Origin: Nitrospirota bacterium
GTDB lineage: Bacteria; Nitrospirota; Nitrospiria; JACQBZ01
Assembly (NCBI GenBank): GCA_016200255.1
Contig: JACQFA010000095.1
Span: 112 to 64,111, forward strand
Direction: 5' to 3'
DNA length: 64,000 bases
A program made the translations under genes and the position numbers. The notes under the pieces are model-generated. The model was not told where the DNA came from. It worked only from the letters and a program-made list of their open reading frames with translations, and ran no database searches. This document shows positions 26,126-33,717 of the stretch, piece by piece. How positions within the stretch are numbered: the first letter of the stretch is position 1; every line of letters starts with the position of its first letter.

Positions 26126-28513
26126 ATGCGGCACAGCATTAAAAAACTCGGGTTGTTCCTGACCTTAAATATTCTCGTTCTTTTTTCCCTTTCCTACGGG
26201 ACCGCCGCTCTTGCGGGAGATGCCATCCTAACATGGAACCCCAACACGGAACCGGACCTAGCCGGATATAAAATTTATTATGGAACAGCCTCCGGCAGTT
26301 ATGGAGCCCCCATTGACGCCGGGAATCAAACAACCTATACCATAACAGGCTTGGGATACGGAACTTACTACTTTGCGGTCAAGGCCTATGATACAACTGG
26401 AAATTTGAGCGGCTCCTCGAACGAGGTAAACAAAACACTTTCGGATACGACACCACCCGTGATCTCGGCCATCAGCGCCGGCGGAATCACCAGCACCGGC
26501 GCCACAATTTCCTGGACCACGGATGAACCTGCAACTTCTCTGGTTGAATACGGCACCACTACGGCCTACGGATCTTCAACTCCGTTCGATTCAACTTTGG
26601 TCATCGGCCACAACAAAACCCTCGGCGGGCTTCAAGCCTCCATGATCTATCACTACCGCATCCGAAGCGCTGATGCCACCGGCAACCTCGCCATATCGGG
26701 CGACAACACATTTGTCACTGCCGCCGCGCCGGACACCACCCCCCCGGTGATCTCCGGCATTACAGCCGGCAGCGTGACCAGCACCAGCGCCACGATCTCG
26801 TGGACCACCGATGAGCCTTCGGATACCCAGGTCCAGTACGGAACAACGATGTCCTACGGAGCTTCGACCATCCTAAACTCATCTTTGGTGACCTCGCACA
26901 GTCAATCGTTGACCGTCCTTCAGCCCTCCACGCTGTATAATTTCAGAGTGCTAAGCCGGGATGCCGCCGGAAATCTGGCCACATCGGGAAACAATACATT
27001 CACAACGTCCGCGCCCCCCGATACCACCCCGCCCGTGATATCCGGAATCACGGCAAGCAACATAACCAATACGGGTGCGGTCATCACCTGGACCACCAAC
27101 GAAACTGCTAACTCTCAGGTTGAATACGGCACCACTACCGCCTATGGTTCATTGACAACGCTGGATTCCGCTCTGGTCACAAACCACAGTGCCACCTTAA
27201 ACGGTTTGACCGCCTCCATAACCTATCACTACCACGTCAAGAGCGCCGACGCCGCCGGAAACCTCGCCGTCTCAAACGACAATACCTTTATCACGTCGGC
27301 GCCGCCGGATACCACGCCGCCCCTTCTTTCCGGAATCACGGTAAGCAGCGTAACCAACACCGGTGCGGTCGTCACCTGGACTACCAACGAAGCGTCCACC
27401 TCCCAGGTGGAATATGGTCCAACCGTGACATATGGCTCTTCGTCGAACCTGAGTTCTACCCTGGTCACCGGCCACAGCATCACCTTAACCGGTCTGACCG
27501 CCTCTACTCTCTATCATTACTACGTGAAAAGCGCCGATGCCGCCGGAAACCTCGCGGTCTCGGATGACAATACATTCACCGCATCCGCTCCCCCCGATAC
27601 GACGGGTCCGGTTCTCTCTCTGATTACGGCAAGTAACATCACGGCGGCCGACGCCACCATTACCTGGGGTACGGACGAACCGGCCTCGTCCCAAGTGGAG
27701 TACGGATTGACGGCCTTTTATGGCAACAGCACAACGGTCAACGCCACACTTCTCAACAGCCATAGTCAGATACTCACCGGTCTTCAAGCATCGACGCTGT
27801 ACCATTACCGGGTGAAGAGCGCCGACAGCGCAGGCAACCTGTCCGTTTCAGGCGACCTTGTCCTTACCACCGGCAGCGCTGCGGATACGACACCGCCAGG
27901 AAACATCCAGAACTTTTCAGCCAAAGAGACAGGTCATCAAATCTCCCTGAGCTGGCTCAATCCGCCTGACCTGGATTTTATCGGTGTTCGAATCCGCTAC
28001 CGGACGGATCATTATCCAACCGATACCAACGACGGAGTTTTGCTGGGCGACTTCACCGGTCTTCCGAATCAGGCCATGAGCACGATCCAAACCCCGATTG
28101 TGAAACACGTCACTTACTACTATGCCGCTTCAACGTATGACAGCTCCGGAAATTATCAACATACCGCCTACGCTTCGGTGACAACCTCTCTTACTTCAGA
28201 CGGCTCAGGCAGCCCCGACAATGTCACCATGAGCGGCGGATGCGGCATGGTTCGTCCTGGCTCCGGCAAGCCTCCGGGCCCCGGTCAGTCGGCGGACATG
28301 ATCTTCCTTCTGGTCGTGCTTCTGATTGCGATCCTGAAACGGGAAATACAAAAAAAGAAAAGTTTTGACAGAGTCCGGATCATTTCGGGTATAATATTAA
28401 GTTCGTTGTTTTATCATGGGGCGTTTAAACCGGAAGAGATTTCGGAGTTATATTTTGAACAATTCAATCGCACCGTTTTTGACAATAAAACGCTTTTGTA
28501 TTCAGGCGGTTAA
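26126..28513 (+). CDS. Secreted FN3-repeat surface protein with GGC-TM C-terminal anchor
   Basis: Signal peptide (AALA|GD), N-terminal FN3 ([17 protein letters not shown]), five 96-aa FN3-like repeats, a further FN3, then [17 protein letters not shown], a hydrophobic helix and KR. Confidence 0.88.
   Translation: [795 protein letters not shown]
26444..27883 (+). repeat. Five tandem coding repeats with exact 288-bp period (FN3-like domains)
   Basis: DTTPP/DTTGP codons start at 26444, 26732, 27020, 27308, 27596 and 27884. Confidence 0.92.

Positions 28514-33717: not shown

Follow-up and report, generated by a model that had tools for sequence, protein, structure and literature searches.

The window, i.e., the whole stretch of 64,000 nucleotides that was analysed, carries an exopolysaccharide (EPS) locus of the XrtA/PEP-CTERM type. 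Three of its frames, ORFs A, B and C, include FN3 domains that begin at strand B (here called sockets) and C-terminal peptides of the DTTPP type (here called tails), as follows:

26126-28513, + strand: ORF A, 795 aa, stalk protein
26216-26443, + strand: socket 1, mature N-terminal FN3 of ORF A, begins at strand B (GDAILTW...)
28235-28360, + strand: C-terminal anchor of ORF A, with a hydrophobic helix followed by KREIQKKK
28416-30794, + strand: ORF B, 792 aa, stalk fused to a GH39 module
28560-28799, + strand: socket 2, strand-A-less FN3 of ORF B (ADAVLSW...)
29166-29414, + strand: hairpin of ORF B, with GGCG, hydrophobic helix 1, basic RKWTRPK and hydrophobic segment 2 ending in PNGAEA
29415-30749, + strand: GH39-family glycoside hydrolase module (Pfam PF01229, E 1.8e-29)
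30750-30794, + strand: tail 1, DTTPPAPPTGLTVK and a TGA stop, at the end of ORF B after GH39
30805-33717, + strand: ORF C, 970 aa, PcRGLX (PL26)-like protein with a signal peptide and tail 2
33673-33717, + strand: tail 2, DTTPPAPPTGLKVQ and a TAA stop, at the end of ORF C

ORF A consists of a signal peptide, a strand-A-less FN3, five complete FN3 repeats and a DUF4959-like domain, followed by a GGCG motif, a membrane helix, a basic cluster and a 50-aa extension; the N-terminus and the extension are kept across orthologues. The anchor region has zero matches to NCBIfam sorting-signal models at E up to 10. A G.?CG motif is present within the last 90 residues of 22 of the 116 ORF A homologues, and in those inspected by eye it is accompanied by a hydrophobic stretch and a basic cluster. 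The GGCG-helix ends of the stalks have the layout of a sorting signal (motif, helix, basic cluster), yet no model matches them.

ORF B consists of a signal peptide, socket 2, a DUF4959-like domain, GGCG with a two-helix membrane hairpin, GH39 and tail 1. The earlier note is corrected in one point: ORF B is a single frame, in which the hairpin joins the second stalk to the GH39 module. This fusion is kept in three orthologues (P0009, P0010 and P0011; 83-94% identity). AF2 places helices at residues 235-289 of P0008, the hairpin region, with low confidence, and the hairpin is predicted to bring socket, GH39 module and tail alike to the outer side of the membrane. The GH39 assignment is a sequence match, with 103.4 bits against a Pfam gathering cut-off of 26. 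ORF C matches PcRGLX_2nd (PF21345), the central sandwich domain only, with 39.1 bits (cut-off 23.5, E 6.1e-10). The ORF C family occurs in only 4 of 61 genomes of the same class, including G000, and is absent from the other genomes of its genus and of its family, which marks the locus as accessory. In a relative (G043; genome completeness 83%), the order of the window (stalk, then small anchored socket, then lyase) is seen on a contig that stops short of the tail, and a search of this genome for the missing half found none.

Both scaffold proteins begin at strand B directly past the predicted signal peptide, as the earlier note had observed. In ORF A, each internal FN3 has a DTTPP segment ahead, about 23 residues before its Trp, and the N-terminal domains of ORFs A and B have 6 residues ahead of the Trp. 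The Pfam fn3 match of the ORF B socket spans profile positions 16-81 of 84; because it begins at position 16, this socket lacks the first 15 profile positions. For comparison, single-domain FN3 constructs of known structure have profile position 2 of their N-terminal domain aligned to chain residues 17-29. A full FN3 (PF00041) comprises the seven strands A-B-C-C'-E-F-G over the whole profile, and the sockets fall short of this. When socket 1 is modelled alone by AF2 (pLDDT 97.2), strands form at residues 3-6, 15-23, 33-36, 40-43, 49-59, 64-67 and 71-75, and strand A is absent. The nearest solved folds are FN3 domains (TM 0.7-0.8). The sockets are members of the FN3 fold without strand A.

Strand-A-less FN3 domains are common at N-termini. 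They open 70 of the 116 ORF A homologues, as well as 10 or more of the best 150 representatives from a socket profile search. This search gave 28,159 matches at E up to 0.001, the best 150 being mostly giant multi-FN3 proteins, and its output was used for the model of complete repeats described below as well as for the commonness of N-terminal sockets. None of those best 150 representatives has the tail at its C-terminus. As sockets are common without tails, the open domain can do without this tail, or other donors exist.

The GH39 module and the lyase-like protein do both end in a DTTPP segment, which reads DTTPPAPPTGL.V.-stop in each case. The tail sequences given previously are correct, except that their leading S or G lies 3 bases upstream of the starts assigned to them, a trivial shift. 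Tails 1 and 2 share 12 identical residues and differ by 9 synonymous codon changes. Because the residues are kept despite these changes, the similarity of the two tails goes beyond chance and points to selection. The same nine differences, together with unrelated flanks and the start of the next gene 10 bases downstream of tail 1, exclude a misassembly or a recent DNA copy of the tails. Continuation of the FN3 in another frame or in the next gene is also excluded: ORF C opens with a signal peptide of its own, and the gene that follows ORF C lies on the opposite strand.

In the whole 2.26-Mb genome (all stop-to-stop frames of at least 60 aa), the tail motif occurs twice, and the socket motif L.W..N...DLAGY occurs twice in the same set of frames. 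All four occurrences fall in this locus, and the genome-wide count proposed earlier thus yields just these two tails and these two sockets. Among orthologues, the tail is retained in 9 of 12 overall (ORF C and GH39). The register of the end is the same in four of six ORF C orthologues (57-88% identity) and a fifth ends with a shorter variant, tail 2 being kept or nearly kept in P0002-P0006. Five of six GH39 orthologues (P0009-P0013; 48-94% identity) bear the tail; one of these is a GH39 that stands alone, and in another a complete FN3 precedes the tail. The linkers ahead of the tail are variable, in contrast to the conserved tail itself.

The position of tails and sockets relative to a complete domain was analysed using a model derived from 227 complete internal FN3 repeats. 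On this model, 110 of 112 tails align at about positions 6-22, in agreement with the consensus, and end at position 22, plus one more residue (22-23). After the signal peptide, sockets begin at positions 24-29, with socket 1 at position 24 and socket 2 at position 29. By sequence and register, the window tails are orphan FN3 strands A, and tail and socket together lack only the A-B turn. Tag and socket are conserved, and their registers complement each other.

A possible origin of the tails is suggested by distant ORF C homologues, 6 of 28 examined having a complete FN3 that starts with DTTPP directly past the catalytic part. The presence of a complete FN3 at the same place fits the idea that the tail is an inert remnant of a lost C-terminal FN3, or else the functionless end of a linker. 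A very small probability is assigned to this idea: the 12 residues are conserved despite 9 synonymous differences, the tail is conserved while the preceding linkers vary, and, as described below, the stop register is shared across unrelated enzyme families.

Complex models are in line with the register. ESMFold2 complexes of the socket with tail 2 as partner chain scored 0.61, 0.60 and 0.61 in three runs, and the best of three controls scored 0.03. The score mark used is reached by 58 of 80 solved complexes and by 2 of 110 mismatched pairs, counts that apply only roughly here, as own alignments were used. The three runs agree in at least 94% of contacts, with partner pLDDT of at least 62. In the modelled pose, tail residues 27-31 run antiparallel to socket residues 3-8 (strand B), and the tail Leu is in contact with F53, V55 and V71. 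Folding the N-terminal FN3 together with the tail, a check suggested in the earlier note, therefore placed the tail as strand A against strand B, and the controls passed. Part of this result could stem from the program's memory of the FN3 fold; the model shows a fit of the two pieces and is silent on binding. The confident folding of the socket alone in AF2 is a point against docking. The AF2 model of whole ORF B (mean pLDDT 58.8, tail below 50) has no self-docking and is too poor to count.

Tails are not confined to the window. A metagenome scan with a degenerate DNA pattern for the tail gave at least 146 matches in at least 120 loci, and among the matches listed, 141 of 146 terminate in a stop codon (86 TAA, 32 TAG and 23 TGA). 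An alternative genetic code is excluded, as all three stop codons terminate tails. A looser rule added 21 tails, of which 20 share this register. The recurrence of one stop register in at least 141 strict tails and in these looser ones, across unrelated enzyme families, is the point against an inert remnant mentioned above. In 401 genomes of the phylum of the window, six tail matches were found in five genomes, all six at a stop, and the reversed pattern gave zero matches in the same 401 genomes.

The tail carriers listed are mainly secreted beta-helix enzymes, polysaccharide lyases and glycoside hydrolases. Pfam analysis of 94 tailed proteins detected Beta_helix in 14 and also NosD, Pel9A-like, PL14, Polysacc_lyase, GH26, GH16, heparinase II/III, chondroitinase B, pectinesterase and apiosidase. 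An N-terminal hydrophobic segment is present in 63 of 78 tailed frames starting with Met. The surroundings of the sockets are suited to anchoring: among them are N-terminal membrane helices, a lipoprotein Cys, Pro/Ala linkers, dockerin-like ends and GGCG-helix anchors at the C-terminus. Repeats judged dockerin-like by eye are present at the end of some metagenome socket proteins. These distributions favour the logic of enzyme display envisaged in the earlier note, as tails reside mostly on secreted carbohydrate-active enzymes and sockets on membrane-anchored, lipoprotein, linker-borne or dockerin-bearing proteins.

The location of the tail at the very C-terminus is typical of anchoring signals, and the tail could thus be a sorting or attachment signal that is read by other machinery (a protease, a transpeptidase or a secretion step), the strand-A-less FN3 proteins being merely co-regulated surface proteins or fellow substrates. 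Consistent with this possibility, a choice-of-anchor Q domain, of a family named for its varied anchors, matches the segment directly before the tail in 18 of 112 tails, the locus in the window is an EPS locus of the XrtA/PEP-CTERM type, and sockets are common without tails. However, the tail stops 14 residues past its Asp with no hydrophobic run, helix or basic cluster, and it has the features of none of the C-terminal sorting signals compared (PEP-CTERM, LPXTG, MYXO-CTERM, GlyGly-CTERM and T9SS CTD). None of the 112 tails is covered by an NCBIfam or Pfam model, and no exosortase-like gene was found among the 35 window frames, a subset, that were scanned against NCBIfam. In addition, the tail sequence equals the strand-A consensus of complete FN3s and ends exactly where sockets start, and the fold model puts the tail into the socket. 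As the tail has no hydrophobic segment and no match to a sorting-signal model, a secretion signal, the alternative raised in the earlier note, fits less well, and this explanation is considered unlikely.

Tag and socket are also linked genetically. Among the matches listed, 22 of 120 metagenome tail loci contain strand-A-less FN3 domains, 25 domains in all; as controls, 80 tail-less loci of distant ORF C homologues, amounting to 1.19 Mb, contain none (0/80). The co-occurrence predicted in the earlier note is therefore seen at the level of loci. Grouped by length, sockets are present in 0 of 24 loci below 2 kb, in 6 of 34 between 2 and 4 kb, in 3 of 32 between 4 and 8 kb and in 12 of 25 that reach 8 kb or more. 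The socket shares the strand of the tailed gene in 23 of 25 cases, at distances of 87-7670 bp and usually just downstream; a frequent order is tailed enzymes, a small membrane-anchored socket and then a larger socket protein. At the level of genomes, sockets are present in 4/4 genomes with tails and also in 5/5 tail-less control genomes of the same families, where the tail is absent even by a looser pattern and the FN3s are preceded by a signal peptide or a linker in place of strand A. Because sockets are found in both groups, co-occurrence at this level is uninformative.

Overall, the docking of enzymes by donor strand onto anchored FN3 sockets, the split-FN3 reading put forward in the earlier note, is supported computationally, each of the computational tests named there having favoured it, and we assign it a probability of roughly 0.6. 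In this mechanism, the 14-residue C-terminal peptide D-T-T-P-P-x-[A/P]-P-x-[G/N]-L-x-V-x, i.e., FN3 strand A with a proline-rich lead-in, would be a portable docking tag, and the N-terminal FN3s of ORFs A and B would be its matching sockets. As the sockets start at strand B after signal-peptide cleavage, the A-B-E sheet would be open at its edge, and part of the core would be open as well. Outside the cytoplasm, the tail would lie antiparallel to strand B with its Leu and Val buried between the sheets, completing the FN3 fold in trans by donor-strand complementation. The GH39 hydrolase and the PL26-like enzyme would thereby be tethered to stalks whose C-terminal helix holds them in the membrane, at a site adjoining the EPS synthesis and export locus. 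In these steps we infer binding itself, the pairing of tails with sockets, the membrane topology and compartment, and a benefit from tethering.

ORF B bears both a socket and a tail, which makes chains (A<-B<-C) or self-closure possible. This raises an alternative in which the tail acts mainly within or between copies of its own protein, through self-closure of ORF B or pilin-like head-to-tail FN3 chains. Besides ORF B, socket and tail are combined in P0321, and small proteins of 101-152 aa consisting only of a strand-A-less FN3 and a tail are encoded in three metagenome loci and four phage-like contigs. Against this alternative, which seems quite improbable as the main function, few tailed proteins contain an FN3 themselves (fn3 in 2 of 94), and ORF C, P0012 and the metagenome enzymes require a partner in trans.

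Donor-strand docking of this type has several known counterparts. In chaperone-usher pili (Fim/Pap and Caf1), an Ig-like fold short of one edge strand is completed by a strand of another polypeptide, forming very stable, non-covalent, extracytoplasmic links; these pilins lack strand G, the last of the fold, which an N-terminal extension donates, and they depend on a chaperone and an usher. The system proposed here shares the supply of an edge strand by another polypeptide, but it differs from the chaperone-usher scheme: the FN3 lacks strand A, its first, the donating segment is a C-terminal tail carried mainly by enzymes rather than pilins, and no PapD-like chaperone or usher family was found among the 35 window frames (a subset) scanned against NCBIfam. 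In the cellulosome, diverse secreted carbohydrate-active enzymes bear a small C-terminal tag, a cell-bound scaffold bears the receptor and the genes are clustered. The dockerin, about 70 residues long, is a duplicated segment that takes up calcium and attaches to a face of the complete cohesin sandwich. Tagged enzymes, a cell-bound receptor scaffold and clustered genes are shared with the present locus, whereas the tag is 14 residues long and is proposed to join the fold of the receptor itself, and ORFs A-C have no cohesin or dockerin matches in Pfam, which sets them apart from cohesin-dockerin systems. Type V pili of Bacteroidia (FimA/Mfa1) are similar in that the acceptor lacks its N-terminal strand and the donor comes from the C-terminus of the next subunit. 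In these pili, a protease removes the N-terminal strand after its synthesis, and the subunits, which are lipoprotein pilins, belong to a different fold family; in the present system, the gene itself does not encode the strand and the donors are enzymes.

A search of the accessible literature found analogues and no description of this tag. The newly found Pam pili of the Candidate Phyla Radiation are a donor-strand system with membrane-anchored parts in uncultivated lineages, in which truncated Ig-like pilin domains take a linker strand, PapD-like chaperones occur and an FN3-containing RbmA-like protein is proposed to insert its N-terminal strand, tethering the filament; the accessible part of that report describes the system without C-terminal DTTPP tails on enzymes (PMC13278184, bioRxiv 2026). 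In the complex of myomesin and obscurin-like-1, a strand of one protein combines with the Ig-like fold of another, termed 'fold complementation' (PMC5222588), and conserved C-terminal tails and beta-strand augmentation with a pilin fold are reported for PilC/PilY1 (PMC13711793; 10.64898/2026.02.14.705861). As presented in the available portions of these sources, both are single partner pairs (of muscle and of type IV pili), not a portable tag across enzyme families. A consensus FN3 with a swapped N-terminal strand (PDB 4m6a) indicates that such a strand is exchangeable between molecules; as far as the entry describes it, this is an engineered protein with a swap inside a dimer, whereas the split proposed here is natural and lies between genes.

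The pairing of tag and socket is found again in numerous uncultivated bacteria, which points to an undescribed route for clipping enzymes onto cell-bound stalks. A bolder generalisation, to which we give slightly less than an even chance, is a widespread docking code in which secreted polysaccharide-active enzymes, in their hundreds, and small FN3 proteins encoded by phages would carry the 14-residue strand-A tag and plug it into strand-A-less sockets of membrane anchors, stalks and dockerin-bearing adaptors. Chaperone-free, cellulosome-like arrays might result, the proteins with both socket and tail might form non-covalent head-to-tail FN3 chains, and the EPS locus of the window would be one instance, with a GH39 and a PL26-like enzyme tethered beside the route of polymer export. 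If the tail does complete the socket, bacteria of several phyla would own a very small and genetically portable means of fixing enzymes to surface or periplasmic stalks, achieving a cohesin-dockerin-like function by the strand-complementation trick of pili. This would explain two features ignored by current annotation, namely the many surface proteins that start in an FN3 without its first strand and the DTTPP.AP.GL.V endings of many secreted lyases and hydrolases. Enzyme-anchor networks could be predicted from sequence in uncultivated organisms, the positioning of EPS-trimming enzymes would be concerned, and a natural 14-residue tag with a 75-residue catcher would become available for protein engineering.

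Two single cases count against docking and one counts for it. One tailed frame is an odd carrier, a helix-turn-helix plus Fic protein with no export sign. In genome G377, linkage is loose, the nearest socket being 68 kb away from the tail. In favour of linkage, in genome G358 a socket gene is located about 600 bp upstream of the gene for a 1277-aa tailed protein.

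The co-directional ORFs A, B and C (26.1-33.7 kb of the window) lie in an XrtA/PEP-CTERM-type exopolysaccharide (EPS) locus (~17.7-55 kb) with genes for a priming transferase, an export protein, glycosyltransferases, an amidotransferase, an O-antigen-ligase-like protein, a flippase and a sigma-54 regulator. The nearest named ORF A homologues are from Nitrospirota (e.g., Manganitrophaceae, Nitrospiria).

23855-25504, minus strand: 549-aa frame just upstream of the stalk genes; no Pfam/NCBIfam family match; signal-like N-terminus, and an end (...GLSTEF) resembling an outer-membrane beta-barrel
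26126-28513, plus strand: ORF A, 795 aa; signal peptide, strand-A-less FN3, five complete FN3 repeats, DUF4959-like domain, GGCG motif, hydrophobic helix, basic cluster
28235-28360 and 29166-29290: stalk anchor motif (also in locus L082 and homologous proteins P0278-P0346)
28361-28513: ORF A extension, 50 residues beyond the anchor, overlapping the ORF B start
28416-30794, plus strand: ORF B, 792 aa; N-terminal start like that of ORF A, then GGCG motif and helix as in ORF A, basic stretch, second hydrophobic segment, GH39 module
30805-33717, plus strand: ORF C, 970 aa; signal peptide
33742-34923, minus strand: 393-aa frame directly past ORF C; no Pfam/NCBIfam family match

The best explanation, with a probability of roughly 60%, is donor-strand docking of enzymes on anchored FN3 sockets, i.e., FN3 domains that start at strand B. 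The C-terminal tail would be a portable strand A; by completing the open FN3 of an anchor or stalk protein, it would tether the enzyme there. In the window, FN3 stalks anchored in the membrane would hold the enzymes beside the EPS pathway, a presumed compartment and purpose.

The earlier note had claimed that the N-terminal FN3 of both stalk proteins lacks strand A, which is borne out by Pfam, comparison with solved FN3 domains and AF2. The Pfam fn3 match in ORF B begins at profile position 16, and solved single FN3 domains carry 16-28 residues ahead of the point where the window sockets begin. The ORF A socket alone is modelled by AF2 at pLDDT 97.2 with strands B, C, C', E, F and G only, and the nearest solved folds to this model are FN3 domains. 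The high-confidence model of a lone socket is, as far as prediction goes, a point against docking. AF2 of the whole ORF B, run to look for self-docking, gave a poor model (mean pLDDT 58.8).

The further claim that the GH39 module (Pfam E 1.8e-29) and the lyase-like protein (ORF C; PcRGLX-like central domain, E 6.1e-10) stop right after an orphan strand A also holds, both tails being real C-termini. ORF B ends in DTTPPAPPTGLTVK and ORF C in DTTPPAPPTGLKVQ, each followed by a stop; tail 1 lies 10 bases from the ORF C start, and the gene past tail 2 is on the other strand. DTTPP, as in the tails, opens each of the five complete FN3 repeats of ORF A. A recent DNA copy is ruled out as the origin of the tails because 9 of their 12 shared residues use different synonymous codons. 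A genome-wide count (2.26 Mb, 104 contigs) found the tail motif twice and the socket motif twice, all at this locus.

Tails and sockets are complementary in register. On a model of this FN3 subtype, built from 227 complete internal repeats, 110 of 112 tails place their Val at position 22 and their last residue at position 23, and the first position of sockets behind a signal peptide is 24-29; joined, tail and socket amount to a whole FN3 without some four A-B-turn residues. The two pieces were folded together with ESMFold2, using a 76-aa socket (26-row alignment) and the C-terminal 32 residues of ORF C (112-row alignment). The scores were 0.61, 0.60 and 0.61, and the best of three controls scored 0.03; the score mark is one that 58 of 80 solved complexes reach, against 2 of 110 mismatched pairs, counts that are only roughly valid because the analysis used self-made alignments. 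Contact agreement between runs was at least 94% and partner pLDDT at least 62. In the predicted pose, tail residues 27-31 run antiparallel to socket residues 3-8 (strand B), the tail Leu touches F53, V55 and V71, and the tail occupies the canonical strand-A place. As solved structures include a great many complete FN3 domains, this pass may be fold memory; the prediction shows a fit between the pieces, not binding.

Tails were sought in three collections with a degenerate DNA pattern, D.TPP.[AP]P.x[L/F]xVx then TRR. Among 401 genomes of the window's phylum, it gave six matches in five genomes, including that of the window, all six ending in stops, and a reversed pattern gave none. Metagenome contigs gave at least 146 matches in at least 120 loci (637 kb); a stop codon ends 141 of the 146 listed and TGG the other five. 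With a looser rule that also left the position of the stop free, 21 further tails were found in the loci listed, 20 of them ending one residue past the last hydrophobic position. Two to four tailed genes occur in 28 of 99 counted loci among those listed. Most tailed proteins are carbohydrate-active enzymes that are secreted: among the matches listed, Beta_helix is found in 14 of 94, other Pfam families are NosD, Pel9A-like, PL14, Polysacc_lyase, GH26, GH16, heparinase II/III, chondroitinase B, pectinesterase and apiosidase, and many of the 94 have no Pfam match. An N-terminal hydrophobic segment is present in 63 of 78 Met-starting tailed frames. That the tail is a sorting signal decoded by other machinery is a less likely reading; it is not built like the known C-terminal sorting signals. 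No Pfam/NCBIfam model covers the tail itself in 112 tails, and a choice-of-anchor Q domain lies just ahead of it in 18 of the 112. A tailed helix-turn-helix plus Fic/DOC protein without an export signal (L094:4949-5911(+), duplicated in L147) does not fit the docking picture.

Co-occurrence of tails and sockets was examined with an HMM from the two window sockets, in tail loci and 80 tail-less control loci (1.19 Mb). Of the 120 tail loci listed, 22 held strand-A-less FN3 domains, 25 in all, whereas the control loci held none, their eight FN3 matches all having their own strand A. The share of loci listed with a socket climbs with locus length (0/24, 6/34, 3/32 and 12/25 for <2, 2-4, 4-8 and >=8 kb), and 23 of the 25 sockets lie on the same strand as a tailed gene, 87-7670 bp apart. 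In a recurrent layout, found in loci of 35-62% G+C, one to three tailed enzymes are followed by a 125-140-aa protein with a membrane helix and a socket, and then by a larger socket protein. Other sockets are accompanied by a lipoprotein Cys and Gly linker or by Pro/Ala linkers, or stand ahead of dockerin-like ends. In G358, a genome that is nearly complete, the gene for a tailed protein of 1277 aa has a socket gene ~600 bp upstream of it; in a relative (G043), the order is stalk, 177-aa anchored socket and lyase, and the contig stops before the tail position.

Other observations count against docking. In genome G377 a distance of 68 kb separates the tail from the nearest socket, and 70 of 116 ORF A homologues begin as sockets, with C-termini that by eye are GGCG-helix anchors, dockerin-like repeats or T9SS-like ends. 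Sockets occur in five of five tail-less genomes of the same families, where even a looser pattern found no tail, and none of the best 150 representatives from a socket profile search has a C-terminal tail. Sockets are far commoner than tails, which is a point against docking. Socket proteins L227 (G241:C88) and L221 (G110:C38) end in tail-like variants, ...PPPVPTGLRINPFN and ...DTTPPSAPTGTAVTP, missed by the strict pattern, so the range of donor forms may be wider than these counts show.

Tails are retained among relatives. Four of six ORF C relatives (56-88% identity) keep the register, ending in ...PP.PP..L.[VA][QK]-stop; a fifth has a variant shorter by two residues, and the sixth, a 1430-aa fusion, has none. 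Five of six GH39-module relatives (44-94% identity) are tailed: three are the same stalk-GH39 fusion as ORF B, one is a GH39 on its own behind a signal peptide, and one has the order GH39, complete FN3, tail. Distant ORF C loci have no tail (0/80); six of the 28 distant homologues inspected as far as the C-terminus have a complete DTTPP-starting FN3 directly past the catalytic part. The tail therefore looks like the retained first strand of an FN3 whose rest was lost or moved. That it is now an inert remnant is very improbable, close to excluded.

Viral contigs gave eight pattern matches, five of them true C-termini: one on a lyase-like enzyme and four on 101-104-aa proteins that start at strand B and end in a tail (L087:176-487(-), L089:5436-5747(+), L093:5695-6009(-) and L090:12598-12903(-), on phage-like contigs). 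These could be circular permutants or self-polymerising units. L089 also has a lysozyme-like gene (4594-5025), and L087 and L090 have a small secreted FN3-like protein beside the FN3-plus-tail gene. Small bacterial proteins with signal peptide, strand-A-less FN3 and tail (L144:1935-2336(-), L154 of 123 aa, L158:452-820(-)) appear to have the parts for head-to-tail chains. In proteins with both socket and tail (ORF B, homologue P0321, the small FN3-plus-tail proteins), chaining or self-closure would be possible; that the tail is mainly self-acting or polymerising is unlikely.

Docking of tailed enzymes would work like pilus donor-strand complementation and have a role like that of cohesin-dockerin, but the defining features of both are absent here. 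A literature search found analogues only, namely Pam pili (PMC13278184), myomesin with obscurin-like-1 (PMC5222588) and PilC tails (PMC13711793; 10.64898/2026.02.14.705861), and no description of the tag in the literature searched. The proposed system would be a form of strand-complementation docking and is directly testable. Dockerin-like repeats (DIN.DG.V...D, by eye) end socket proteins L102:2697-3191(-), L168:1676-2209(-), P0275, P0285 and P0287, which hints at a bridge between the tag system and cohesin-dockerin assemblies.

The stalk anchor motif, GGCG(M/A)(V/I).P..G.PP.PG..A followed by a hydrophobic helix and a basic cluster, is laid out like a C-terminal sorting signal and includes an invariant Cys. 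None of the NCBIfam CTERM models matches it, even with E allowed up to 10. Of 116 ORF A homologues, 22 have a G.?CG motif in their last 90 residues. The anchor may be a sorting or lipidation signal that has not been described before. Beyond it, the DNA of the ORF A extension is AT-rich, with an A8 run and a TTGACA...TATAAT-like pair. Because the extension (...DR.RIISGI...LYSGG) is retained in orthologues P0277, P0280 and P0297, it looks like a genuine cytoplasmic tail, not the product of a missed stop.
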